Shown here piece by piece: positions 4,575-26,531 of a DNA stretch of 32,000 nucleotides (positions within the stretch are counted from its first letter, which is position 1; every line of letters starts with the position of its first letter). A program made the position numbers and the translations under genes. Source of the DNA: an uncultured Clostridia bacterium. Lineage in GTDB: Bacteria > Bacillota > Clostridia > UBA1381. The stretch is from NCBI GenBank assembly GCA_947623955.1, contig CANQIP010000010.1, positions 19,696 through 51,695 on the forward strand, in the 5' to 3' direction. The notes under the pieces were generated by a model. The model was not told the DNA's origin. It ran no database searches and saw only the letters and a program-made list of their open reading frames with translations.

Positions 4575-4601
4575 ATAAAAGCACGTCCGAAAACGTGCTT
4601 T
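4575..4601 (-). terminator. Intrinsic terminator after gp10-like exon 2
   Basis: AAAGCACGT-CCGAAA-ACGTGCTTT. On the minus strand the stem is followed by TTTTATAATACC. Confidence 0.65.
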
Positions 4602-4611
4602 GTAAACTGTG

Positions 4612-4805
4612 TTAATTTATAAATCCGTTCTTAAACGCCTCGATTATTTGCGGGATGTTGTTTTTCAGTGCCGGAACGAGAAACGGCTGCGGCGCGTGTC
4701 CCGATGTGGTATAAAACCGACCGCCGCTGTAATACGTCCAATGTTTTTTGGTCGTGTGCGCGACGGACTTATCACCCTGCGCGCCCGTTCCAAATTCAAC
4801 ATATA
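4612..4805 (-). CDS. HK97-gp10-family head-tail/tail component, exon 2
   Basis: There is no start codon. The frame reads (L)YVEFGTGAQGDKSVAHTTKKHWTYYSGGRFYTTSGHAPQPFLVPALKNNIPQIIEAFKNGFIN*. The YVEFGT and PFLxPAL motifs are hallmarks of the gp10 family C-terminal half. Confidence 0.8.
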
Positions 4806-5012
4806 CATTTGTTATCGTAAAGGCTTTTTATCCTCTACTTCTTATAGTTTCCTATAAGTTCGGCGTACATCATAACAAAAAAGAACTTTAACCCAACAGT
4901 TCTTCTCTGTTTCGAGCACTCTTGGAGGGATTATATTTATTCACCCTCTACGCTCTACGGTGCTGTCCAGCCTTGCGCAATCTGGACAGTTACCTCGGTG
5001 TTGTCTTGATTT

Positions 5013-5810
5013 TCAAATATTTTTATTTGTTGTTGGTCTAAACAATCTTTCGCCGCGGTCACCTCGATGGTAGCGTCGAAATAATGTCGTTTTTGGTATC
5101 CCTGATAACTTTGCAGCCCTTGTTAGCGGTATTATTTCACCAGAATATTCCACCAAGTATTTTACGTTTTTTCTGTCCTCTCCCGGGTTTCGAAACAGCC
5201 TATTACCACGATCACCTCTATGATAGCGAGCATCAACTACCGATCTCGTCAATCTGGCTAATGCCGCAGCATCTGTCAAGCACATTTTTTCACCGTTATA
5301 ATCAACAATAATGTTGCTGCGACGGTTTCTACTCTGCGTGAAATTATCTGTCCAACGGCAATTAGAAGGTTCATAGTCTCCGCTATTATCAATACGGTCT
5401 ATTGATAAATCATCAGCATATCCGTTTAACATAGCCCAATCATAAAATGCTTGGAAATCATTTTTCCATTCATCGCACATCTTTATCCCGCGTCCGCCAT
5501 AGCTGTCATACCTTTCATTGTTGGAATTATAACATCTGCCTTTCATTCCTTGCCATTCATAGTAAATTCGTTTACCGCTCTGTTTATGTGAATGATTTTT
5601 TACAAGATTTATTCTATCCTGTTTTTTCTTCTCGCAACCGCATGATATAGTTTTTCCTTCTAACAACACATCACTGCGAATATTTTTCACGTTTCCACAA
5701 TCACATTTGCACTTCCAAAAGGAATGCTTTCCAGCAGTCGGTACAAATTCCAACACCGTCAGCCTACCAAATCGCTGTCCCGTAAGGTCTCTTCGGAATG
5801 ATCTGCTCAT
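5013..5810 (-). CDS. Intron-encoded homing-endonuclease-like DNA-binding protein
   Basis: 265 aa from MSRSFRRDLTGQRFGRLTV. It has the Cys cluster WKCKCDCGN...SCGC, then YGGRGIKMCDEW...LSIDRIDNSGDYEPSNCRW (HNH-like module without the usual His pair), then two C-terminal repeats ...RYHRGDRG(N/E)RLFR.P. The ATGA start overlaps the upstream stop. Confidence 0.6.
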   Translation of the reverse strand: MSRSFRRDLTGQRFGRLTVLEFVPTAGKHSFWKCKCDCGNVKNIRSDVLLEGKTISCGCEKKKQDRINLVKNHSHKQSGKRIYYEWQGMKGRCYNSNNERYDSYGGRGIKMCDEWKNDFQAFYDWAMLNGYADDLSIDRIDNSGDYEPSNCRWTDNFTQSRNRRSNIIVDYNGEKMCLTDAAALARLTRSVVDARYHRGDRGNRLFRNPGEDRKNVKYLVEYSGEIIPLTRAAKLSGIPKTTLFRRYHRGDRGERLFRPTTNKNI

Positions 5811-6085
5811 GCCTTCACCGCCTCCGGCATTTGCAATCCGCACTCAATCATTAAGCGCACTGCAGTTTGAAACCCTGTTATAAAGCCAAACTCTTCCATT
5901 GCCGCCTCACTGGTTGAAACAATGCTTTCTACCGTGTCAATATACATTTTTTCGCCTACCAGTTCTTTCAGACGCTCACCAACTTCATGCTGAACTTTCT
6001 CCGCCTTTTCCCATTCCAAACCGGTATTATTCTCGCCTGTTTCGCTAGTGTGTAAAAATATTTTTTTTATTTCCTTGTAATCCAT
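5807..6085 (-). CDS. Intron-encoded small hypothetical protein (92 aa)
   Basis: ATG 6085 is preceded by AAGGAGGA: MDYKEIKKIFLHTSETGENN...EEFGFITGFQTAVRLMIECGL. It is translationally coupled to the downstream ORF. Confidence 0.6.
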   Translation of the reverse strand: MDYKEIKKIFLHTSETGENNTGLEWEKAEKVQHEVGERLKELVGEKMYIDTVESIVSTSEAAMEEFGFITGFQTAVRLMIECGLQMPEAVKA

Positions 6086-6203
6086 TATAAAATCCTCCTT
6101 AAAAATTCTTGATTTCCCTCGGCGGATATGATATAATAGATTTATCATCCCGTGAGGGTTGAGTTTTATAGAACGTTGTTTTCGTTGGTAGCGGTGCAAC
6201 GTT

Positions 6204-6377
6204 CTATTTCTTTATTTCGACCTCTAACTTTTGTATCCCTCGACTAATAGCTTCAGTCTTATTAACGTCATTTTGCTCACAATAAGTATCAAGCGTTTGT
6301 TTATCTTTATCGCTTATTCTAATACTGATTTTATTAGGTCTTGGATTATCTGTCGGTCTTCCGGTTCTTGGACTCAT
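6204..6377 (-). CDS. Intron-encoded ribbon-helix-helix (CopG-like) protein, 57 aa
   Basis: Below the ORF-track size cutoff. RBS GTGAGGTG precedes ATG 6377: MSPRTGRPTDNPRPNKISIRISDKDKQTLDTYCEQNDVNKTEAISRGIQKLEVEIKK*. The basic N-terminus, beta strand (ISIRIS) and two helices fit the RHH pattern. Confidence 0.6.
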   Translation of the reverse strand: MSPRTGRPTDNPRPNKISIRISDKDKQTLDTYCEQNDVNKTEAISRGIQKLEVEIKK

Positions 6378-6404
6378 TTCATCACCTCACTTTTGTCTGG
6401 CATA

Positions 6405-6433
6405 ATTATATATTATTGCCCGACAAAAGTCAA
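6405..6433 (-). promoter_or_regulatory. Consensus sigma-A type promoter inside the intron
   Basis: The minus strand reads TTGACT-17 nt-TATAAT. It is overlapped by a 36-nt imperfect palindrome TTTGTCGGGCAATAAT-ATAT-AATTATGCCAGACAAA (6392-6427), a candidate operator. Confidence 0.65.
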
Positions 6434-6507
6434 GAGGTTTTTATAAAAATATTTAAAAATTTTAGATTTCACCGATTTTGCTCGATTTTTCATGCGCTAT
6501 ATGATTA

Positions 6508-6730
6508 ACGCATACTCAGAATTCGTTCCGATTACCGCGCTGTTGCCCTCGACCGTGCTTGTAATGCTGCCCTTTAGCCGTCCCGTACTATCTGGGCTGG
6601 GGCAATTCATCACCGCATCGGCGCGCACAACCTCACCCGCCATAGCGAGCGCGTTCTGTATCTTTCCGCCGCTTACAAGGTTCTGCAGCGCGTTTATAAC
6701 GCCGTCCACACCCTCAATACTTATTTGCAT
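6508..6730 (-). CDS. HK97-gp10-family head-tail/tail component, exon 1
   Basis: MQISIEGVDGVINALQNLVSGGKIQNALAMAGEVVRADAVMNCPSPDSTGRLKGSITSTVEGNSAVIGTNSEYA matches the gp10 family N-terminal half. The unspliced frame stops 3 codons into the intron (TAG 6499-6497). ATG 6748 or 6739 are alternative starts. Confidence 0.8.
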
Positions 6731-6750
6731 AACCCTCATTCCTTCCATGC

Positions 6751-6777
6751 AAAAAGCACGTCCGCTTGAACGTGCTT
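6751..6777 (-). terminator. Intrinsic terminator upstream of the gp10-like gene
   Basis: AAGCACGT-TCAAGCGG-ACGTGCTT followed by TTTTTGC on the minus strand. It has the same stem sequence as the hairpin at 4575-4601. Confidence 0.65.
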
Positions 6778-6792
6778 ATGCTGTATCTTTTA

Positions 6793-6951
6793 TTAGCTCG
6801 CTTTCTTCTCAGCCTGCAACCGCTGTTGTTTTTTTGCTATAACCTTAGCTTCAAGACGGGCAATTTCAGCGTCTAATTCCTCACTTGTCATGTTTTTGAT
6901 ATAATCAGGAATTATACCTCTGTCATCTGCGACAAATACTTCTTTTTCCAT
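6793..6951 (-). CDS. Small hypothetical protein (52 aa) coupled to the MuF-JAB gene
   Basis: Below the track cutoff. RBS GGGAGGTGG precedes ATG 6951, one nt after the MuF stop: MEKEVFVADDRGIIPDYIKNMTSEELDAEIARLEAKVIAKKQQRLQAEKKAS*. Confidence 0.5.
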   Translation of the reverse strand: MEKEVFVADDRGIIPDYIKNMTSEELDAEIARLEAKVIAKKQQRLQAEKKAS

Positions 6952-6952
6952 C

Positions 6953-8659
6953 TCATTCCACCTCCCAAAAATCTATATCACTGTTATCCTTCAATTTTGT
7001 CAAAGCCTTTATTTGTGCATCAAATTCAGAAAACCCTTGTTCTATGAATTTTTCGATATAAGCAGTATATAACGTGTTTTCAATATTTTCATTTGCGTTA
7101 TATCCAAAAATTTTACCGTTGTGACAAATAATAAAGCCTTGCTTATAGTTGTTTTTGTAACAAGCATTAAAGTCCGAAGCGCTTGGCGGCATACTATGTG
7201 GGTGTGTATGCAGAGCAATTATATTATCATGTCCTTTTAAGGCTTTCTTCATTGCTCCGGTATACGCAACCGCTCTTTCCGTTTGCTCATTTAAGGCGCT
7301 TATAATAACCTTTCCCGTATTGCCGTCAATCCAATACATATCCTCGTACAGCGTACCGCTTCTATGCTTTAGCATTTCCTTTGCCTTTGAATATAATACG
7401 CGGTTTACTTCATCGTTCGGTGTTAAATTGTCAAATTTACGCCGATAATTGCCGCTGTCGATATATGAGTTATTTATAAGCGTTGACTTGTTCCTTCCGT
7501 ATCTTTGGTTTTCGAGTGCCACCGTATCACCCCTCATATTCATTATATCATTTTTCACGGAATTGTCAACAGCTTTCGTCTTTTTCGTCCGCGCCTCTTT
7601 AACGTGCGTTTCCATAGCCGCCTTTTGTTCCGGTGTAAGGCTCGCCTGCCATTCCTCGAACGTCATATCGCCGTCAACTTTGTAATTTTTGCCCGTTGCG
7701 GGGTCGCGAGCGATACGCGTCTTTGATATAGCGTCCGCCATGATAGTTGTACAGCGGCAATTCGGGTGTATGGGCGGATAATTCACGCCCTCGCGTGCGT
7801 CGGTGACGTCAAACACCTTGCCATCCAGTCCGCCGCACGTCTCGCACGTCCGCTCCGACAGTGCCGCCACAAAACGGTATTTCTTTATCCCTATTTCGTC
7901 ATACGCCGCCTTTTGCCCCGTATTCATAAAATGCGCCGTTTCCGTCCGCACAAGCCGCGTAGTGGAATATAATACGCCGTCCGCGCCCTCGCTTTTGACG
8001 TATTCCTCTAACTGCGCCGCCATGCGGTTTACGCTGTGTCCCGCCATTATACCGGTAGTAACGGTGTTCTGTACCGCCTCGGTAAACCTGTCATTGTGGT
8101 TCCATATGCGGTCGCTGTAATTCGCGCCGTTCCACGGTTCTCGTAATGCCGCGTCAATCGCCCTCGTCGGCAGGAGCGAAAAATCTATACCGCAGTTTAA
8201 GCCTTTCGCGATATTATACACGTTCGTGTAATACGACTTCTGCAGCGTTCTCGTGTAAAACAGCTTATGCGCCGCAACCGCCGTATTTGCAACGCGTGTC
8301 ATTTCAGTGAGTATGCGCGACTTCACGCCCTCTAAGCGGCTTATTCGTGCGCCGTAAGCCTGCGCGTTTACCCTCGCGAGTATTTCCGCCCGCCGTTCGA
8401 TGTCCGTCGTTTCCTCGAACAGCTGCATAAGTTCGGCGTAGGTCTTGTCGCTTTCCGCCGCGTTCAGCAGCTTTACCGCCTCGCCCTCGGGAATGTCCAT
8501 AGCCACATACGCCGAGAACGTGTCGCGTATATCGGCGTTTATAGCCTCAATCGCCCGTTCATACTCCGCTATCGTTTCTTCGCTCAGCTTGTCCGCGCCG
8601 TTCTGTAATTCCTCTTCCAGTGCCGCCGCACGCGCCGCCCAATATGCTTTACTCCTCAT
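6953..8659 (-). CDS. MuF / SPP1-gp7-like minor head protein fused to a C-terminal JAB/MPN-like domain
   Basis: The N-terminal ~340 aa carry the MuF pattern (...RLVRTETAHFMNTGQ...ERTCETCGGLDGKVF...PPIHPNCRCT). The C-terminal ~170 aa carry ...YEDMYWIDGNTGKVII...NIIALHTHPHSMPPSASDF, a JAMM/RadC-like E...HxH...PSxxD signature (7172-7216). Confidence 0.8.
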   Translation of the reverse strand: MRSKAYWAARAAALEEELQNGADKLSEETIAEYERAIEAINADIRDTFSAYVAMDIPEGEAVKLLNAAESDKTYAELMQLFEETTDIERRAEILARVNAQAYGARISRLEGVKSRILTEMTRVANTAVAAHKLFYTRTLQKSYYTNVYNIAKGLNCGIDFSLLPTRAIDAALREPWNGANYSDRIWNHNDRFTEAVQNTVTTGIMAGHSVNRMAAQLEEYVKSEGADGVLYSTTRLVRTETAHFMNTGQKAAYDEIGIKKYRFVAALSERTCETCGGLDGKVFDVTDAREGVNYPPIHPNCRCTTIMADAISKTRIARDPATGKNYKVDGDMTFEEWQASLTPEQKAAMETHVKEARTKKTKAVDNSVKNDIMNMRGDTVALENQRYGRNKSTLINNSYIDSGNYRRKFDNLTPNDEVNRVLYSKAKEMLKHRSGTLYEDMYWIDGNTGKVIISALNEQTERAVAYTGAMKKALKGHDNIIALHTHPHSMPPSASDFNACYKNNYKQGFIICHNGKIFGYNANENIENTLYTAYIEKFIEQGFSEFDAQIKALTKLKDNSDIDFWEVE

Positions 8660-10004
8660 CGTCGTCTACACTATACCGCCGCCTGTCGCCCTTTGCCGCC
8701 GCAGCCGCGAACGCTTCCGACTTTTCGGCGGCTTCTCTTTTCACAAGCTCCGCTTCTTCAGCCGCGTCGGATATAAACGGCAGCTGTTCGAGTAATGTTT
8801 CGGTTGATACAACCTTCGTCAGATTATTTACCATTTGCGATATTTCCAACTCGTTCGCCGGCAGATTACGCGTAAATACAACGTCAATCCTATGTATCGG
8901 CACAGTCGCCATCGCGCCTTTAAGCGACAGGAAATTTATATACAATCCCAGACGGCTCTTTAACCCCTTTGCAATCTGCCGCTCCTTGTTTTTGACGCTC
9001 TGCTCAAATCCCAGTAGCTTGTATTTTATCGCAACTCCGCTTAAATTGTTGCCGAAGCTCTCATCTGTCAAATCAGGCACAAGCGAGAAACGGTGTATAT
9101 CGTCCTTCAAATTGTTACGCAAGACCTCAATGTCGCTTTCCTGCATGATTTTTGACAGGTATTGCGCAGACGCGCCCTCATATCCCATAAGGATTTTTTC
9201 TTCGCGCAGCTTTTTAGCTTGGTCGCTGTCGATGTCGAGATTTACCAAAAATAAAAACGCGTCCACAAACTGCTCTTTGTCGTTCACTCTATCCGACATG
9301 AGCGTATTGTACGCGTCTATCGCGGGTATAAGCTGCTCAAAATCGCCCTGCTTTTCGCCGTTGTTACAATACTCGATAAGCGGCACGCTGCCGAAATAGT
9401 GCGGCGTTGTGTCCGTACACTCCATATTGTCAAAGCTATTCCGCCCCGTAAAGGTGTATATGTCGTTTGCGTCGCACACGATACATTCCGTACCTGTGAC
9501 TGTTCCGTCGAGGTCGCGGCGTTCAAAATAATAAACGCCGAACAGCGGAGTATGCCGGCAGTCGTCGCCGTAAACAACAAACGTCCTATCCGGCGGCAGT
9601 ACCGCGCTTTCGGGCGCGCTGTTCTCGTTCGCGTACACGTATTCATACGCCCGCCCGTAAATGCTGACATTTTTAACGATTTCGCTGTCCACGCTCGCGA
9701 TGTCCTGAATAAGATAGTTATTCTTCAATGCCTCGATGTCGTATTCCTCTGACGCGGCATACGTTACGGGGTTGCCTATCAAATACGATGTTGTCATGTC
9801 CGTTATGTAACGTGCGTGATTCAACACTATTTTCGTGTTCGGACTGTCGGGCGATACGCGCCGGCGGTTTAATATCGTATGTCTGCCCGCGTAGTAGTCG
9901 CGCAATCGTGCATACCTTTCCGCCGCGCCGCGGTGAAGCTGTATCAGCTTTGCCAAAATTTCAGCCGTAATGCCGTCCGCTATTATGCTTTTGTCGATTA
10001 TCAT
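8649..10004 (-). CDS. Portal protein (SPP1 gp6-like)
   Basis: 451 aa between TerL and MuF, with an acidic C-terminus and the typical N-terminal ...YARLRDYYAGRHTIL... pattern. Confidence 0.85.
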   Translation of the reverse strand: MIIDKSIIADGITAEILAKLIQLHRGAAERYARLRDYYAGRHTILNRRRVSPDSPNTKIVLNHARYITDMTTSYLIGNPVTYAASEEYDIEALKNNYLIQDIASVDSEIVKNVSIYGRAYEYVYANENSAPESAVLPPDRTFVVYGDDCRHTPLFGVYYFERRDLDGTVTGTECIVCDANDIYTFTGRNSFDNMECTDTTPHYFGSVPLIEYCNNGEKQGDFEQLIPAIDAYNTLMSDRVNDKEQFVDAFLFLVNLDIDSDQAKKLREEKILMGYEGASAQYLSKIMQESDIEVLRNNLKDDIHRFSLVPDLTDESFGNNLSGVAIKYKLLGFEQSVKNKERQIAKGLKSRLGLYINFLSLKGAMATVPIHRIDVVFTRNLPANELEISQMVNNLTKVVSTETLLEQLPFISDAAEEAELVKREAAEKSEAFAAAAAKGDRRRYSVDDDEE

Positions 10005-11269
10005 ATTCCAAACTCCTTCCGCGAATATATCTTTGCTTTTCTCATTGTAATCTCGTCCTCTAACGCGTACCGCGCCGCGTCAATAGTGTGATTATCCTTG
10101 TCGGGATATTCCGCCTTGAAGCCGTCGTTCCCGTCCGGTTCAAGCGCATAGTTATAAAATTCCTCGAACGTATGCGGACACCGCGCACTGTCAATTATAA
10201 TTTCCTCAAGCGACTGCAAAAATTTAATACCGTACTCCACGCTGTCAGGGCCTTTTTTCGCGCCGCGTACACGTAACCCGTACCCGCGTAATTCAGCGAT
10301 TGACTTAGGCTCTGCGCTGTCACATATAATTGGCTGGCTGTATGCGCGTTTTGCGTTAATCATTTCCGCCGCACGCCTGTTTGACAATCCCGTTTTGTAT
10401 ATCTCGTCGAAGATATATAACCGCCGCCGTTTTTTGTCGTAGTGCGCGACGATATACGCGAACGGGTCGGACGCGTAACCGAAATCGACGCCGCGCTTTA
10501 TGTGGTCAAACGCCGCTATTTCCTCGTCGGTTATACGCCGCTGTGTAATGTTTGTGAATACCTCGCCGCCCGTGCCTGTCGCATAGCCGAGATATTCATG
10601 CTCGTATAATTCCGGTTTTGTTTTTTTCAAGTGCTCCGCCTCCCTTATAAAATCTTTACCCAGCCACTCAGCCGGAACGTCAATATATGTGCTGTGATGT
10701 ACGATCCTGTCTTTCCGTTCCGTCAACGCCTCTTTGTTTACCCAGTTGCGCTTTGACTGCGGCGGGTTATACGAATAAAACACTACAAACCCATTACCGC
10801 CGCGCATTAGCGATTGATTTATGGAGCGTATCTCCGCCATGCCGCCAAACTCGGCTAATTCCTCGTACCAGATGTATTTGATATACCCTTTCTTGACCTT
10901 TGTCGATTTCAATTTCTGCGGCTTATCCGCCCCGCGAAATAAGATGCGCTGTCCCGTAGGCAAATAGACAAGCTCCATAGGACTTAATTTCTCCTGCCAC
11001 AAATGCGACGCGCCTAATTTGTCAATCGCCCACAATAGCTGATTATACACGCTGTCGCGCAGATTGTCCTTTACCTTGCGTATCACAACGGCGTTTGCCG
11101 CCGCGTCGCCCATTATTCCGAGTATTATCATCACCGACACAAACGACGACTTTGTACTTCCGCGCCCGCCTTTAAGCCAGTAGTGCGTGTGGGCGTTTTC
11201 CGTTACGTCGTAATATAAATCATAAAACGAAGGAGCGATAACGTCAGTCAGTCTTTCCAACGTTATCAC
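10001..11269 (-). CDS. terL: Terminase large subunit (PBSX-type)
   Basis: 422 aa with Walker A YWLKGGRGSTKSS, Walker B-like IWYEELAEF, and a nuclease half with DSAEPKSI. Confidence 0.9.
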   Translation of the reverse strand: MITLERLTDVIAPSFYDLYYDVTENAHTHYWLKGGRGSTKSSFVSVMIILGIMGDAAANAVVIRKVKDNLRDSVYNQLLWAIDKLGASHLWQEKLSPMELVYLPTGQRILFRGADKPQKLKSTKVKKGYIKYIWYEELAEFGGMAEIRSINQSLMRGGNGFVVFYSYNPPQSKRNWVNKEALTERKDRIVHHSTYIDVPAEWLGKDFIREAEHLKKTKPELYEHEYLGYATGTGGEVFTNITQRRITDEEIAAFDHIKRGVDFGYASDPFAYIVAHYDKKRRRLYIFDEIYKTGLSNRRAAEMINAKRAYSQPIICDSAEPKSIAELRGYGLRVRGAKKGPDSVEYGIKFLQSLEEIIIDSARCPHTFEEFYNYALEPDGNDGFKAEYPDKDNHTIDAARYALEDEITMRKAKIYSRKEFGI

Positions 11270-12803: not shown

Positions 12804-13577
12804 CTACAACACGCGGAGCGTGTTGTTCACATCCGGCGGAGTCTCTCTCACCTTAATCAATTCGTATTCCTGATATGTAAATCCATCCAAATCGGGAAAA
12901 CCTGTAAACAGCGTTCCCTTCGCTATCTCGTACCTGTACCCGTATTCCTCGCACTTCGGCGGTTTCGGGTTCTCGCGTATCGCGCTCATCGGCACGACGC
13001 GCTTTATAACCTTCGGCTTTCGCAGATTTCGCGAGTGACCGAATTTTTGATATGTCAGGTCCTTATGTTTGCCGCCGTCCAAAAAATATTTAATCAGGTT
13101 GCCGCTTTCCATGTCGGTTATCTCTTTCGGATCTGTTACAATTCCGTATTCTTTCCAGTAGTTGAGCAGCATTGATATAATCTCGGGGCTTGTGTTGCGG
13201 ATTATCAGATGATGATGTGGGCGTATCGTGTCGGACGCTTCTGTCACCCTATACCATACAAACGGTATATTCTTCCTTTTCAGCCGCTTTTGCATTTTGC
13301 TTAAAACCTTGCTGAGTATTTTATCTGCTTTTTCCGGCTCATGCCATTTTTTATATGTCAGCGTTACCCAGTAATCGCCCAAATCAAAATTTTCATAACA
13401 GTCATGCTTGATTTTTAAATATGCCTGACGCGCATTCCTTTTTTTCTTTCCCTCGCCCGTTGCGCATAAACGGACTCCCCTCTTCTTTTTGGAATTTGAG
13501 GGGTTATAATAAAAACATTTCGTACGGTAAACAAACTCCCGATGTTTTGTTGGTACACGCGTACATAAAACAAGCAT
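12804..13577 (-). CDS. HUH rolling-circle replication initiator (Rep)
   Basis: 257 aa with motif 1 WVTLTY, motif 2 RPHHHLII (HUH) and motif 3 LIKYFLDGGKH (catalytic Tyr). RBS GGAAGGAGAGGG. Confidence 0.7.
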   Translation of the reverse strand: MLVLCTRVPTKHREFVYRTKCFYYNPSNSKKKRGVRLCATGEGKKKRNARQAYLKIKHDCYENFDLGDYWVTLTYKKWHEPEKADKILSKVLSKMQKRLKRKNIPFVWYRVTEASDTIRPHHHLIIRNTSPEIISMLLNYWKEYGIVTDPKEITDMESGNLIKYFLDGGKHKDLTYQKFGHSRNLRKPKVIKRVVPMSAIRENPKPPKCEEYGYRYEIAKGTLFTGFPDLDGFTYQEYELIKVRETPPDVNNTLRVL

Positions 13578-22076: not shown

Positions 22077-23552
22077 ATGCCAACAATCACGCCTGACGCA
22101 TATCCCGACGAGGCGTACAGCAAAATTGCCGCCGCGTATATACGTGTATCGACCGACGACCAGGTGGAATACAGTCCCGAATCACAAATAAAAGCAATCA
22201 GCGAGTACGCAAAGCGTAACGGCTACCTTCTGCCGCGCGAGTACATCTTCGTCGATGAAGGCATAAGCGGCAAGACAGCGGACAAACGTCCGTCGTTTAT
22301 GAAAATGATAGGCACTGCAAAAACCAAGCCAAAGCCGTTTGACGCTATTTTGTTATGGAAATTCAGCCGTTTCGCCCGTAACCGCGAGGACAGCATTGTT
22401 TATAAATCTATGCTGCGTAAACAGTTGGGTATTGAGGTCATTTCCATTTCCGAGAACCTCGGCGACGATAAAATGTCGATACTTTTCGAGGCTATGATAG
22501 AGGCTATGGACGAATACTACAGTATAAACCTTGCCGAAGAAGTAAAGCGCGGCATGACGGAAAAGGCAAAGCGCGGCGAGCCGTGCTCGATCCCGCCGTT
22601 CGGGTACAAAATGGTCGAACGCCGGCTTGTACCCGTCCCCGAAGAGGCTGATATAGTACGCCGCGTATTTAAGTGGTACGATGAGGGCGCGGGTATGCTG
22701 CGAATTGCGAAAAACCTAAACGCCGCAGGAGTGCGCACACATCGTGGAAATAAAATCGAAAACCGAACCGTTGAATACTGGCTGAACAATCCCACGTACA
22801 ACGGTAAAATTCGTTGGACTCCGACCGGCAGCACCGACCGCAACTATCATAACCCCGACAGCATGATTGTGCAAGGTGCGCATGAAAAAATTATAGACGA
22901 CGCGCTATGGGAAAGGGTGCAGGTACGAATGAAAGAGCAAAAGGAAAAATACCGCAAATGGTACACGCCGCGCAGCAGTATAAGCCACTGGCTCGTCGGA
23001 CTGGTGCATTGCGGCATATGCGGCGCGCCGGTTGTAAACTGCCGCGGTTATATGTATTGTAACGCCCGCGCTAAAGGAACTTGTACCGGCAACGGCGGCG
23101 TGAAGGTGACACAACTTGAAGAAAGCGTCTTAAAGCAGCTTGAGAACTTCGCCGACGGCAAGATTGATATTGTCAGCATTGCCGCCGCGAATGATGAACC
23201 GACAGACACGTCCGTATATGATGCGCAGCTCCGCCGTGCGCAAATACGTATGGCGCGTGTGAAAGAGGCTTACGAGAACGGCGTTGATACGCTCGAAGAG
23301 TATAAGGAAAATAAGGCGAAAATCCAAAACGAAATAAACAGTATAACAGCCGAAATGAAAAAGCAGCCCACCCGCACAAGCAAGCGTGAAAATGTCGATA
23401 ATCTCAAAAAGACCGTTAAAAACTCTTTGTCGGCTCTTAAAGATGAAAGCCTGTCGGCTGTTGAAAAGAACAAAATTGCCCGTGAATTTATATCGGATAT
23501 TATCAAAACCGGCGACGACGGCAAGACGTTTATCGTATCATACAGAATATAA
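22077..23552 (+). CDS. Large serine recombinase (integrase)
   Basis: AAAYIRVSTDDQ catalytic Ser motif, resolvase domain, recombinase domain, Cys cluster CGICGAP...CNARAKGTC and a C-terminal coiled coil. ATG 22077 lies 10 nt after AAGGAG. Confidence 0.9.
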   Translation: MPTITPDAYPDEAYSKIAAAYIRVSTDDQVEYSPESQIKAISEYAKRNGYLLPREYIFVDEGISGKTADKRPSFMKMIGTAKTKPKPFDAILLWKFSRFARNREDSIVYKSMLRKQLGIEVISISENLGDDKMSILFEAMIEAMDEYYSINLAEEVKRGMTEKAKRGEPCSIPPFGYKMVERRLVPVPEEADIVRRVFKWYDEGAGMLRIAKNLNAAGVRTHRGNKIENRTVEYWLNNPTYNGKIRWTPTGSTDRNYHNPDSMIVQGAHEKIIDDALWERVQVRMKEQKEKYRKWYTPRSSISHWLVGLVHCGICGAPVVNCRGYMYCNARAKGTCTGNGGVKVTQLEESVLKQLENFADGKIDIVSIAAANDEPTDTSVYDAQLRRAQIRMARVKEAYENGVDTLEEYKENKAKIQNEINSITAEMKKQPTRTSKRENVDNLKKTVKNSLSALKDESLSAVEKNKIAREFISDIIKTGDDGKTFIVSYRI

Positions 23553-23877: not shown

Positions 23878-23907
23878 ACACTGTATCATTTTGGTACAGT
23901 GTTTTTC
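23878..23907 (+). terminator. Hairpin plus T-run just upstream of repA
   Basis: ACACTGTA-9 nt-TACAGTGT followed by TTTTT. It follows a short open frame ending at TAA 23868-23870. Confidence 0.5.
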
Positions 23908-23922
23908 ATTGGAGGGAATAAG

Positions 23923-24834
23923 ATGCAATTAGATTACTTCTATGGCAACGAAGCGGAGCAGTTTACGTTTTATCGTATTCCAAAGCTGCTCGTAACGTCG
24001 CCGCAGTTCAGACGCGTATCGGACAGCGCAAAGCTGCTGTACGGACTGATGCTCGACCGCATGAGCCTATCCGTTAAAAACGGTTGGTTTGATGAACAAA
24101 ATCGGGCGTACATATATTTCACGGTCAACGACATTATGGAGCAAATGCTATGCGGAACGGAAAAGGCGACAAAGCTCGTTGCGGAGCTTGATTGTGTCAA
24201 GGGAATTGGTCTTATCGAGCGCGTTAAGCAAGGTCAGGGCAAACCCGCGAAGGTTTATCTGAAAAAGTTTGTTGATACACAGCGGAATTCAAGGTTTTCG
24301 GAAACCGAAAGTCAAGACTTCGGGAAATCGAAAGTACAGACTTTCGGAAATCGAAAGTCAAGAGTTTCGGCAATCGAAAGTGCAGACTTTCGGCAACCGA
24401 AATGTAATGATAATAATATAAATAATACTGATTTGAACGAAATCAATCCTATCAATCATAGCAATACGAGATGGATTGACAGATACAACAAAACAATCGC
24501 TGAAATCAAGGAACAGATTGAATACGACAGCTTAATAGACGATAACGATACGGAGATAATCGACAACATCGTAAACGTCATGGCGGACGTTATGCTTTTG
24601 GACGAGCCGTACTATACGATTGAGAGCAAGAGCATACCCACCGAATTGGTGCGGATTCGTTATCGGCAGATTACATATAGCAATTTAGAGGCATTTTTGT
24701 TGGAGTTCAGGGAGGTGTATTACAAGATACACAATACAAAGGCGTATCTTACGACGGCGCTGTATAATGTGGCACTGACCGCGAGTACAGCGTTGACGAA
24801 CAGAGTTAATAACGATTTACGGGGAGGTGAATAA
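23923..24834 (+). CDS. RepA_N-family replication initiator
   Basis: MQLDYFYGNEAEQFTFYRIPKLLVTSPQFRRVSDSAKLLYGLMLDRMSLSVKNGWFDEQNRAYIYFT... matches the RepA_N pattern. RBS GGAGGG. Confidence 0.8.
   Translation: MQLDYFYGNEAEQFTFYRIPKLLVTSPQFRRVSDSAKLLYGLMLDRMSLSVKNGWFDEQNRAYIYFTVNDIMEQMLCGTEKATKLVAELDCVKGIGLIERVKQGQGKPAKVYLKKFVDTQRNSRFSETESQDFGKSKVQTFGNRKSRVSAIESADFRQPKCNDNNINNTDLNEINPINHSNTRWIDRYNKTIAEIKEQIEYDSLIDDNDTEIIDNIVNVMADVMLLDEPYYTIESKSIPTELVRIRYRQITYSNLEAFLLEFREVYYKIHNTKAYLTTALYNVALTASTALTNRVNNDLRGGE
24296..24405 (+). repeat. Five 22-24-bp iterons inside repA (candidate oriV)
   Basis: Units start at 24296, 24318, 24342, 24365 and 24388. Each is TTTCGG-N3-4-CGAAAGT(C/A/G)(A/C)AGA(C/G)-like and contains a TTTCGG..CCGAAA mini-palindrome. 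Confidence 0.7.
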
Positions 24835-24835
24835 A

Positions 24836-25654
24836 ATGAGCAAGGTAATAGCTGTTGCTAATCAAAAGGGCGGCGTTGGTAAAACGACTACTGCGGTTAA
24901 TCTTGGCATCGGACTTGCTAACGAAGGTAAGCGCGTACTGCTCGTGGACTGTGATCCACAGGCGGATTTGACGAAAAGCCTCGGTTATGAAAATCCCGAC
25001 GATATGGACGTTACGCTATCGACGGTGATGCAGAAGGTTATCAAGGAACAGCCGATAGAAAACGGCTTTGGCATCCTGCGCCACGCGGAAGGTGTTGATA
25101 TAATGCCCTCGAATATTGAGTTATCCGGCATGGAAACGGCGCTTGTCAATATTATGAGCCGCGAACGGGTATTGAAGGAGTATATCGGTCAGGTCAAGGA
25201 TAATTACGATTATATTCTGCTTGACTGCGCTCCGACGCTCGGTATGCTGACGATAAACGCGCTGACGGCGGCAAATGAGGTAATTATTCCCGTGCAGGCG
25301 CAATTTCTTCCGGCGAAAGGTTTGGAGCAGCTTATGAAAACGGTTGCGAAAGTGCGGCGGCAGATTAACCCGAATTTGAAAATTGGCGGCATACTGCTGA
25401 CTATGGTCGATAACCGTACCAATCTCGCGAGGAATGTTTCAAAGGTCATACGCGATACATACGGCAGAAATCTGAATATTTTTAAGACGGAAATTCCATC
25501 GTCAGTGCGCGCAGCCGAAACTTCAGCGGCAGGAAAAAGTATTTTTGCTTACGATAAGAGCGGCAAAGCGGCTGAAGCATACAAAAATTTGACAAAGGAG
25601 GTGATAAACAGTGGCAAGGCAAGGAGTAAACATCGGTCTGACATCATACGATGA
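24836..25654 (+). CDS. parA: ParA/Soj-family partition ATPase
   Basis: Deviant Walker A NQKGGVGKTTT. The ATG follows GGGGAGGTG. Confidence 0.9.
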   Translation: MSKVIAVANQKGGVGKTTTAVNLGIGLANEGKRVLLVDCDPQADLTKSLGYENPDDMDVTLSTVMQKVIKEQPIENGFGILRHAEGVDIMPSNIELSGMETALVNIMSRERVLKEYIGQVKDNYDYILLDCAPTLGMLTINALTAANEVIIPVQAQFLPAKGLEQLMKTVAKVRRQINPNLKIGGILLTMVDNRTNLARNVSKVIRDTYGRNLNIFKTEIPSSVRAAETSAAGKSIFAYDKSGKAAEAYKNLTKEVINSGKARSKHRSDIIR

Positions 25655-26531
25655 TATTTTCAAAGCGGACGATAGCCGAGATATGGACGAAATACGTTCC
25701 GTTCCGCTGTCGGAGCTAAAGCCGTTCGAGGAACAGCCGTTCAAGGTACTGCTCGACGAGAGCATGGACGAATTGGTTGACAGTATCAAGGAAAGCGGCG
25801 TACTATCCCCTATTATCGCACGACCGCATAAGGACGGCGGCTATGAGATATTATCGGGGCATAGGCGCGCAAAAGCTTGTGAACTTGCGGGGATTGAAAA
25901 TGTTCCCGTTATCGTGAAAAATCTTGACGACGATACGGCGACGATTTTGCTTGTGGACAGTAATCTGCAACGAGAGAATATATTGCCGAGCGAGAAAGCG
26001 TATGCGTATCGGCTGAAAATGGAGGCATTAAAACATCAGGGAAAACGAACTGATTTAACTTGTGACCAAATTGGTCACAAGTTAGAAAGTAAAAAAAGTA
26101 TTGATATTGTAGCTGATAATGCTCCTGACAGTCGTAACCAAATTCAGCGATATATTCGCCTAACGGAACTGATAGATCCGATAATGAATATGGTTGACGA
26201 GAAAAAATTACCGCTCAATGCTGCGGTGGAATTGTCGTATCTCGGTTCGCGGGAGCAGGCAGAGGTTGTCAAAGCGATAAACAGTGAGGAAACGCCGCCG
26301 TCTATCGAGCAGGCGAAAAAGCTGCGGCGGTTTTCCGAGAACGGACAGCTTAACGATAATGTCGTACTCTCTATCATGCAGGAGCAAAAGCCGGAGAAAA
26401 TCCGCGTCGTACTCAAAGAGGACAGCCTGCGGAAGTATTTCCCTAAAAGCTATACTCCGAAGCAGATGGAGGACACAATAAAGAAATTGCTTGAAAAATG
26501 GGCGCGCAGTCGAAGCGAACCTGAAAGATAA
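25611..26531 (+). CDS. parB: ParB/Spo0J-like nuclease-fold partition protein
   Basis: ParB N-terminal box ILSGHRRAKAC. GTG start after AAGGAGGTG, overlapping the parA end. Confidence 0.85.
   Translation: MARQGVNIGLTSYDDIFKADDSRDMDEIRSVPLSELKPFEEQPFKVLLDESMDELVDSIKESGVLSPIIARPHKDGGYEILSGHRRAKACELAGIENVPVIVKNLDDDTATILLVDSNLQRENILPSEKAYAYRLKMEALKHQGKRTDLTCDQIGHKLESKKSIDIVADNAPDSRNQIQRYIRLTELIDPIMNMVDEKKLPLNAAVELSYLGSREQAEVVKAINSEETPPSIEQAKKLRRFSENGQLNDNVVLSIMQEQKPEKIRVVLKEDSLRKYFPKSYTPKQMEDTIKKLLEKWARSRSEPER
26056..26084. promoter_or_regulatory. 29-bp perfect palindrome inside parB (candidate parS)
   Basis: TAACTTGTGACCAA-A-TTGGTCACAAGTTA, 14-bp perfect arms. Confidence 0.5.

Follow-up and report, generated by a model that had tools for sequence, protein, structure and literature searches.

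A group I intron of a Clostridia phage element carries a predicted homing endonuclease gene that a captured immI-like module probably controls

What is a three-gene cassette with a promoter of its own doing inside an intron, and when would it be expressed? The question arises in the window, a stretch of 32,000 nucleotides from an uncultured Clostridia bacterium (GCA_947623955.1, contig CANQIP010000010.1, positions 19,696 to 51,695; all coordinates below are positions in the window), where a phage HK97-gp10-like gene is interrupted. We found that this gene is split by a group I intron of a large phage family, with splicing predicted, and that a loop of the intron holds a promoter, a gene for a ribbon-helix-helix (RHH) protein, a gene for a 92-aa protein and a translationally coupled HNH-like gene, as had been proposed in an original prediction made from the letters alone. 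That prediction had further taken the cassette to be expressed in the lysogen, in the manner of morons, defence cargo or toxin-antitoxin-like cargo. Our comparisons speak against this, as the regulatory anatomy resembles that of phage P22 immI, which is shut off after a burst. They also show that the cassette is not specific to the intron: a related phage has the same unit between terminase and portal, outside any intron. On balance, the locus is probably a mobile intron in which a captured immI-like module controls the homing endonuclease.

The interruption of the gp10-like gene is seen from its two parts on the minus strand. An 83-aa open reading frame (ORF; 6748..6497) matches only the first part of the HK97-gp10-like family, and the remainder of the family sequence (VEFGTGAQGDK...PQPFLVPALKNN...) is found at 4805..4620 in a frame without start codon. 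The exons and the site between them are as follows.

6508..6748, minus strand: exon 1 of the HK97-gp10-like (tail completion / Neck1) gene (Pfam HK97-gp10_like, 4.4e-05; phrog_5, 1e-9), with a 3' end that reads ...GAGUAUGCGU
4620..4805, minus strand: exon 2 of the same gene, beginning UAUAUGUUGAAUUUGG..., with its stop at 4620-4618 and no in-frame start codon
U6508 joined to U4805, minus strand: the intron-less gp10 site across the junction, GAGTATGCGT-TATATGTTGAATTTGG

Joining U6508 to U4805 keeps the frame, reads ...GTNSEYA-LYVEFGTG... and gives a spliced product of 143 aa, the true start of which may be the ATG at 6730 (MQISIEG). After the join the Pfam HK97-gp10_like score rises from 24.8 to 36.2 bits, with a match that spans the junction and continues to the end of the model. 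The uninterrupted gp10 of a related prophage (L129) reads KEYAAYVEFGT.

The sequence between the exons has the anatomy of a group I intron, the parts of which are listed here.

4806..6507, minus strand: group I intron of 1702 nt, with the 5' splice site after U6508 and the terminal G4806
6492..6513, minus strand: P1, exon AUGCGU 6513-6508 with GCGCAU 6497-6492 and a U6508.G6497 wobble at the splice site (read from the sequence, no covariation count)
6479..6485, minus strand: P3 5' strand UCGAGCA, pairing with 4918-4912 (compensatory changes in 7/7 pairs, 40 sequences)
6470..6475, minus strand: P4 5' strand UCGGUG, pairing with CACCGA 5000-4995 (99.6% of cells paired; compensatory changes in one pair)
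6443..6460, minus strand: P5 5' strand, an 18-nt A/U helix with 5026-5009 (94% complementary)
5009..5026, minus strand: P5 3' strand, which covers the final codons and the stop of the endonuclease gene (complementarity, duplex energy)
4912..5000, minus strand: intron core with P4 3' strand 5000-4995, P6/P6a hairpin 4994-4959, P7 5' strand 4953-4949, P7.1 hairpin 4948-4925 and P3 3' strand 4918-4912
4874..4911, minus strand: P8, a 14-bp stem of 4874-4887 with 4898-4911 (inverted repeat; position shared with relatives)
4806..4867, minus strand: P7 3' strand UACGC 4867-4863, P9 hairpin with GAAA loop 4858-4841, P9.1 hairpin 4838-4817 and terminal G4806 (read from the sequence)

In 40 diverse family members, the 29 pairs of P3, P4, P6/P6a and P7.1 are standard-paired in 98.6% of the cells and 22 of them show compensatory changes, including 9 of 11 pairs in P6/P6a and 5 of 5 in P7.1. 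None of 500 shuffles matched these values, and controls in which the strands were slid were about 40% paired. P7, P8, P9 and P9.1 also show compensatory differences from relatives, among them L001, L002 and L003, judged by inspection and uncounted. The helix of UCGGUG (6475-6470) with CACCGA (5000-4995), which the original prediction had offered as a possible closure of the cassette into one peripheral loop, is real and corresponds to P4, covarying in the 40 relatives; the adjacent P5 of 18 bp closes the loop more tightly still. The P5 duplex has an energy of -14.4 kcal/mol against -2.6 +/- 1.4 in shuffled sequences (0 of 2000 shuffles equalled it), and the same pairing was detected in the related intron of L136, which likewise has the P1 U.G wobble and the terminal G.

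By blastn, the 3' core (5014..4790) has matches of 75-79% identity in Staphylococcus phages ROSA and BE28 and Clostridioides phage phiCDKH02, where introns occupy the same gp10-like gene (ORF019 in ROSA) at the same insertion site; as far as the records show, the halves in these phages are listed as separate coding sequences with no intron annotated. The core pattern CCGTAGAGCGTA-N5-TGAATAAATATAA-N6-CAAGAG recovered at least 120 contigs from IMG/VR (loci L009-L128). Judging from the flanking sequences, members of the family appear to sit in many different genes. One contig (L078) has two intron-core copies about 4.8 kb apart (869-910 and 5695-5736), hence a single phage can hold several members.

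Neither at the gathering threshold nor at E <= 10 did Rfam give an intron model for the window, and four ORF-less relatives gave none either. The group I assignment is therefore based on anatomy and covariation, and the family seems to be absent from the Rfam models or too distant for them. This silence, together with the ability of the cassette to stand free, would fit a locus without any intron, in which a mobile endonuclease cassette broke gp10 into a pseudogene or into two separately translated halves. Such a reading is very hard to reconcile with the strong covariation of the RNA core, with a P1 (U.G wobble) and a terminal G placed precisely at the in-frame join that restores EYAxYVEFGTG, with an exon 2 that lacks a start codon, and with ORF-less members of the RNA family that interrupt many other genes. 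We regard it as extremely improbable and rejected it on the core covariation, the position of P1 and the terminal G at the restoring join and the startless exon 2.

The cassette of this group I intron lies in loop L5, which holds everything from the promoter through the stop codon of the endonuclease gene. About 110 members of the family were sampled for the occupancy of this loop. P4 and the core are separated by 65-105 nt in about 45 ORF-less members and by 640-1260 nt in those with one endonuclease gene; the member in the window, with 1518 nt, is the longest. The endonuclease in L5 is mostly of the HNH-like family found in the window (about 35 loci), with the exceptions of GIY-YIG (L011, L092), LAGLIDADG (L039, L072) and classical HNH (L107) enzymes. 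As at least four unrelated endonuclease families occupy L5, the sequences tell us that it is a site of repeated and independent invasion. Matches to the RHH protein or to the 92-aa protein occur in the window only among the sampled members, so the gene combination is rare, as the original prediction had supposed. The one other three-gene L5, that of the diverged relative L136, surfaced through the endonuclease search. Hence the small ORFs are lacking from nearly all homologous introns, which the prediction had named as an outcome that would count against it, and L136 is the exception. L136 shares the intron site, the promoter, a near-identical operator and the RHH gene, and encodes its own 65-aa second ORF and a 67%-identical, ATGA-coupled endonuclease. 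The 65-aa ORF shares a C-terminal SE..E..F..GF motif with the 92-aa protein. As sequence-level context for a predicted homing, the identical element was identified in two phage backgrounds (14 metagenome contigs with two different upstream head genes), and the endonuclease family occurs in many introns.

The elements of the cassette (promoter, palindrome, ORFs of 57, 92 and 265 aa, Cys cluster, His-less motif and C-terminal repeats) and the 14-bp stem were all recovered on the minus strand at the positions originally predicted. To these we added two signals on the plus strand. All RNA ends are predicted from sequence signals.

6405..6433, minus strand: sigma-A-type promoter TTGACT-17-TATAAT (best regional match, 11/12)
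6389..6430, minus strand: palindromic operator over the -35 edge, spacer, -10 and start site, the presumed site of the RHH protein (inverted repeat)
6204..6377, minus strand: 57-aa RHH protein, Arc/CopG-like, presumed autorepressor (phrog_876 'transcriptional repressor', 8e-14)
6144..6215, plus strand: predicted countertranscript of ~70 nt with a small 5' hairpin, a 12-bp terminator hairpin (6168-6207) and then UUUCUUUAUUU (ends inferred)
6109..6137, plus strand: antisense promoter TTGATT-17-TATAAT with an extended -10 TGATATAAT, facing the RHH gene (10/12, TG present)
5807..6085, minus strand: 92-aa acidic protein (isoelectric point (pI) 4.7), predicted helical, a distant DUF6809 relative (ratio of nonsynonymous to synonymous substitution rates (dN/dS) 0.30 against the L129 copy)
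5013..5810, minus strand: 265-aa predicted HNH-like homing endonuclease, phrog_374 / 'PVL ORF-50-like' family (phrog_374, 4e-74)

The operator consists of two arms of 21 nt (6389-6409 and 6410-6430) that are 81% complementary. In phages, homologues of the 57-aa protein have the annotation CopG or transcriptional repressor. The protein itself matches RHH models only weakly (Pfam RHH_1, E 0.17, and DUF6290, E 0.03, both below the cut-off; an NCBIfam RelB-type model, E 0.007, with 16.6 bits against a cut-off of 50). Against its copy in L136 the RHH gene has a dN/dS of 0.09. The promoter is conserved in L136, in L129 and in modules of Streptococcus, Clostridioides and Fusobacterium phages, and in the Streptococcus phages a palindrome of different sequence occupies the same position beside a diverged RHH gene. 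Since promoter, operator, RHH gene and layout are conserved in L136, L129 and phages of other genera, these signals are beyond what chance would give.

Homologues of the RHH protein with the MSPRTGRP start, the TTGACT promoter and the positioned palindrome were found in Streptococcus phage MismyG and the Javan prophages, in Clostridioides phiCD211 and in Fusobacterium phiFN37 and Funu2. These modules run from the RHH gene through 80-120 nt and an optional small ORF to an antirepressor-type gene (Ant, Rha or Bro-N/KilAC), and several of them are inserted among structural genes. The RHH, antisense and antirepressor module is conserved at loci L005 (3000-3400), L004, L141, L138, L139 and L140. 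An antisense promoter stands at the equivalent position in 8 of 9 related modules (TTGAnn or ATGACA, 17 nt, TATAAT), seven of them with the full TGATATAAT. In the window, this extended -10 motif was counted five times against 0.35 expected, the other copies being at 6897-6905 (plus), 7542-7550 (minus), 13173-13181 (plus) and 25096-25104 (plus). The predicted countertranscript is antisense to the spacer and the 3' end of the RHH gene, and folds with -25.5 kcal/mol (z = -4.2). Its shape of two hairpins and a U-run recurs in 8 of 8 related loci, where the second hairpin has 10-16 bp and lies directly past the RHH stop; the stems differ, and the hairpin loop often contains AACUUUGGUCGG. On the sense strand, the spacer folds so that the Shine-Dalgarno sequence and the AUG of the second gene are paired in three lineages, and those of the 92-aa gene are predicted to lie within a hairpin. 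Taken across these phages, the sense promoter, the RHH gene and the convergent antisense signals (a promoter and a terminator) are, by homology and layout, a module that normally drives antirepressor genes. BLASTP gave no alignment of the 92-aa protein with the second protein of the Streptococcus modules, and a comparison of the endonuclease with the antirepressors revealed no relation. This regulatory design suggests tight repression or burst expression, not the constitutive expression of lysogen cargo.

The nature of the 265-aa protein, for which the original prediction had considered an active nuclease, a maturase-like factor or something else, can be narrowed down. The phage family to which it belongs is very large, with 7535 homologues at E <= 1e-10, and by sequence relationship the protein is ordinary within it. 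Its orthologues include the endonucleases found in the sister introns (39-46% identity), and its endonuclease activity is predicted. The protein is basic (pI 9.7), and in BFVD it had 158 matches at E <= 0.001, with names that include HNH endonuclease, PVL ORF-50-like and AP2 domain. Its AlphaFold model (predicted local distance difference test score (pLDDT) 92) shows an N-terminal sheet with a CxCxC...CxC cluster, a beta-beta-alpha unit at 136-160 (modelled strands 136-139 and 151-154, helix 156-160) and two modules made of a beta-hairpin and a helix-turn-helix (HTH). The IDRID...NCRW motif is without His, so this feature of the prediction stands, in a family that is not unusual. The best solved relative in a profile search was I-HmuI, with a marginal E of 0.024, and its His75 stands opposite Arg139. 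A Foldseek search of the model against PDB gave no significant match, probably due to its elongated multi-domain shape. Most family members have about 210 aa and a single C-terminal module; in the window a tandem duplication of 153 nt gave rise to the second one (direct repeats 5037-5075/5190-5228 and 5131-5153/5284-5306).

The endonuclease gene overlaps the stop codon of the 92-aa gene as ATGA. The junction GGCGGTGAAGnnATGAG (window 5805-5825, L136 1452-1472, L137 113-133), which combines the end of the small ORF with the Shine-Dalgarno sequence and the start codon of the endonuclease, is conserved despite different upstream ORFs, and a coupled leader ORF may be general in this endonuclease subfamily. 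The 92-aa ORF is itself coding, given its dN/dS of 0.30. Only two close homologues of its product were found in 5.8e9 proteins, and 11 at E <= 0.001 in 1.8e9 representatives. No match came from GenBank phages searched by tblastn or from scanning IMG/VR. The protein scores 16.9 bits with DUF6809 (Pfam PF20648), below the gathering cut-off of 27, and is linked to this family through the remote relatives P0131 (31.6 bits) and P0128 (25.9 bits). Its model is helical with a pLDDT of 62, and a fold search in PDB was uninformative.

The gene order and the sizes of 57, 92 and 265 aa match addiction, toxin-antitoxin-like or defence systems with an omega-epsilon-zeta or colicin DNase/immunity layout. 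The cassette would then be expressed in the lysogen under the RHH regulator, and the acidic 92-aa protein would neutralise the basic nuclease, stabilising the prophage or attacking superinfecting phages. The ATGA coupling and the opposite pI values (4.7 and 9.7) fit this, and so does the recurrence of a small endonuclease-coupled upstream ORF in L129, L136 and L137. The RHH protein of the window weakly matches RelB, and that of the free-standing copy described below weakly matches Omega_Repress, ParD, HicB and CopG-antitoxin models. Moreover, a role in competition between phages has been demonstrated for one intron endonuclease (PMC11620839). PADLOC, however, returned a single weak match (mad1, E 0.015, below significance), and the family searches yielded no toxin. 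The nuclease belongs to a homing-type family and is partnerless in the introns of about 35 relatives, the DUF6809 relatives occur in phage early regions without nucleases, the RHH homologues normally regulate antirepressors, and the 92-aa model is too weak for a fold comparison. We therefore consider lysogen-expressed cargo of this kind rather improbable.

The reading that we prefer, a homing endonuclease under a captured immI-like module, has a traceable source. Two related loci from a Clostridia genome bin of the rabbit gut (L007 and L129), whose portal is closely similar to that of the window over much of its length, encode a free-standing cassette between terL and portal, with promoter, RHH gene, spacer, a homologue of the 92-aa protein, a 220-aa endonuclease and a clean terminator. 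The terL/portal junction of the window is empty. The promoter of these loci shares with the window the upstream stretch ...TTTTATAAAAACCTCTTGAC..., the spacer is also the same, and the 92-aa homologues are 80% (L129) and 78% (L007) identical to the protein of the window; the RHH protein differs, having 88 aa and being Omega-repressor-like. Over 6165..5675, a stretch made up of the spacer, the 92-aa gene and the first 45 codons of the endonuclease gene, window and L129 are 84% identical; beyond it the identity falls. The endonuclease changes its affinity accordingly: residues 1-30 resemble the L129 copy (23/30), while residues 61-90 resemble the intron endonucleases (19-20/30, against 8/30 for L129). 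Phage BE20 matches the 3' half together with the intron core at about 74% identity. From this mosaic pattern and the free-standing copy, an origin by recombination of a resident intron endonuclease gene with a free-standing homologue is likely and, by the sequence comparison, the simplest reading.

The portability of the module, which drives varied cargo genes, also allows a more modest view in which it is a hitch-hiking remnant: the immI-like module would have swapped its antirepressor for an endonuclease, and the RHH and 92-aa genes would be kept merely for their promoter and ribosome-binding site (RBS), with no role in the intron or in homing. In agreement with this, the DNA of the small ORF is conserved at its 3' end, where GGCGGTGAAGnnATGAG doubles as the Shine-Dalgarno region of the endonuclease, an unrelated-looking 65-aa ORF replaces the second gene in L136, and the sister introns manage without both small genes. 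The purifying selection on both small genes (dN/dS of 0.09 and 0.30) argues otherwise, as does the intactness of operator, antisense promoter and antisense terminator in both in-intron lineages, and we see only a small chance that they are mere remnants.

For the captured module as a working controller of homing, we propose the following course of events. A resident HNH-like endonuclease gene in L5 would have recombined with a free-standing cassette and gained its front end, consisting of promoter and operator, RHH autorepressor, convergent countertranscript signals and a DUF6809-like ORF. Upon DNA entry into a cell free of the RHH protein, the promoter would fire and give a brief burst of 92-aa protein and endonuclease, independent of late transcription. 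In co-resident phages or prophages, the endonuclease would cut gp10 alleles that lack the intron or the cassette, and the element would be copied in by repair. As the RHH protein builds up, the promoter would be shut, and the countertranscript and the RBS hairpin of the 92-aa gene would hold leaky or read-through expression low, which would spare the DNA of the lysogen and the folding of the intron. The U-run of P8 probably limits the run-on of internal transcripts into exon 2.

This last step touches on the 14-bp stem and U-run, which had been taken for the terminator of the cassette. The stem is the intron helix P8; it may nevertheless do both jobs, as the enrichment of U-runs in P8 and the case of ROSA indicate. 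Of the distinct P8 variants, 18 of 35 from ORF-bearing introns contain a run of at least five U, compared with 1 of 34 from introns without an ORF (Fisher 5e-6, ignoring phylogeny; for example L002 3095-3124), and ROSA has a P8 called terminator-like as well as an internal TTGATT-17-TATAAT promoter. Relatives have a hairpin of other sequence at the P8 position. In the window, an alternative inner hairpin GAAGAACU/AGUUCUU is followed by UUUUGUU, the U-run belongs to the outer stem, and a simple terminator scan did not call the P8 stem. P8 may thus also terminate transcripts from the internal promoter, and 'promoter to terminator' is a fair description of the ORF-bearing members generally, with a terminator that is a part of the ribozyme.

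Several observations weigh against the proposed scheme, beside the silence of Rfam. Arg139, which replaces the catalytic His of I-HmuI, is invariant in 54 relatives, with the positions of Asp138 and Asn162 kept. The predicted antisense RNA starts at ~6144, about 44 nt upstream of the Shine-Dalgarno sequence of the 92-aa gene (6100-6094), and so misses the RBS. The sar RNA of P22 reaches the RBS of the cargo gene, unlike the RNA predicted here. Conservation of AUUAUAUCA could reflect the RBS hairpin and not a -10 element. The DUF6809 relatives lie in phage early regions beside cI/Cro-type, ORF6N and DUF6291 genes, not beside nucleases. A read-through-specific RBS trap of the T4 type is weakly supported as well: the candidate pairing (6446-6434 with the RBS at 6097-6085) has a probability of ~0.2 in the window and in L136 and of zero in L129, and was dropped as a main claim.

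A bolder extension, which we hold to be unlikely, is that the module is a portable 'burst-then-silence' controller traded among selfish phage genes such as antirepressors and homing endonucleases and then captured by the intron, with the 92-aa protein as dedicated partner (inhibitor, immunity protein or activating subunit) of the His-less HNH-like enzyme. If this were true, the intron would carry a self-regulating two-component nuclease system, which may also be a weapon against related superinfecting phages.

Among known systems, two are close to a homing endonuclease under a captured immI-like module. The first is that of the intron endonucleases of T4, which are expressed from internal promoters under autorepression and with RBS hairpins (PMC2988022). 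The locus in the window resembles them in being a phage group I intron with the endonuclease in a peripheral loop, its own promoter, an overlapping operator and an RBS hairpin. It differs in that the T4 endonuclease represses itself, whereas here an RHH gene stands apart from the endonuclease gene, along with a second small gene and a predicted antisense RNA; the promoter is of the host vegetative type instead of a T4 middle or late promoter, and the endonuclease is not a GIY-YIG enzyme but an HNH-like one whose His is replaced by Arg. The immI region of P22 comprises mnt, arc, sar and ant, the 'ant moron' inside the late operon (PMC2629481). Shared with it are a small RHH repressor as the first gene past a strong promoter, an operator that overlaps this promoter, a short countertranscript between the RHH gene and the cargo (in the window, predicted from sequence signals), the embedding in a late structural operon and, in relatives of the module, the antirepressor cargo. 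Unlike immI, the cassette in the window has an RHH protein without detectable Arc homology, no Mnt-like second repressor that we could see, an antisense RNA that falls short of the cargo RBS, an extra small ORF, an endonuclease as cargo and a location in an intron.

The introns of ROSA, BE28 and phiCDKH02 share with the window the host gene, the site, the core and an orthologous L5 endonuclease, and ROSA also the internal promoter and the P8 U-run; they have a single ORF and no RHH gene, 92-aa gene or antisense promoter. I-HmuI of Bacillus phage SPO1 (PDB 1u3e) is likewise a modular phage intron endonuclease with a C-terminal HTH, and its VVDHKDGN..N.RWV..EN aligns with TIDRIDNN..NCRW..Q..N; the protein of the window differs in the Arg for the catalytic His, the N-terminal CxCxC...CxC and the duplicated C-terminal module. 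Plasmid copy-control circuits (pMV158 with CopG and RNA II, pIP501 with CopR and RNA III) also combine an RHH or small repressor at the promoter with a countertranscript acting between the repressor gene and the one downstream; their cargo and replicon differ, and they are an analogy only. In the literature we found no description of an RHH gene inside a group I intron, and DUF6809 was unmentioned.

Further observations concern the surroundings of the intron. The minus-strand neighbours of the split gene are a terminase (11269..10001), a portal (10004..8649), a Mu-F-like minor head protein (8659..6953) and a 52-aa ORF, followed by the 83-aa ORF. Between 4000 and 7500, intron and cassette have a G+C content of 35-44% and the adjacent structural genes reach 50-60%; the low G+C of the insert fits a foreign origin. 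Near-identical terminator-like hairpins AAGCACGU...GGACGUGCUUUU flank the split gp10 on the minus strand (0 expected by chance), one just upstream of exon 1 (6752-6777) and one just past exon 2 (4577-4600). In L129, the gp10 gene sits elsewhere, between the portal and the Mu-F-like gene. Because of this different location and the bracketing hairpins, the gp10 gene itself may be a movable module. The window also encodes a large serine integrase, a DnaD-like loader, ParA- and ParB-like proteins and two DNA methyltransferases (22068-23552, 23899-26531, 15864-18431). By its gene content, the element looks temperate and possibly phage-plasmid-like, and the serine integrase and the ParA/ParB genes make a lysogenic state plausible.

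Introns with endonucleases, internal promoters and autorepression were known already; new are the separate repressor, the predicted antisense RNA and the accessory gene in an intron loop, with a recombinational ancestry that can be traced. Three side results are a large phage intron family that escapes detection by Rfam, an immI-like module of RHH gene and antisense signals that is widespread in Firmicutes and Fusobacteria phages, and an abundant HNH-like family without the canonical catalytic His. Mobile introns of phages are usually described as a ribozyme plus one endonuclease gene, and in T4 the endonuclease controls its own expression. The locus in the window shows a different solution: besides the endonuclease, its intron loop encodes an accessory protein, a repressor distinct from the endonuclease and a predicted antisense RNA. 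It makes testable how the lysogen and splicing are protected from intron endonucleases, and whether regulatory parts are exchanged between free-standing and intron-borne endonuclease genes.

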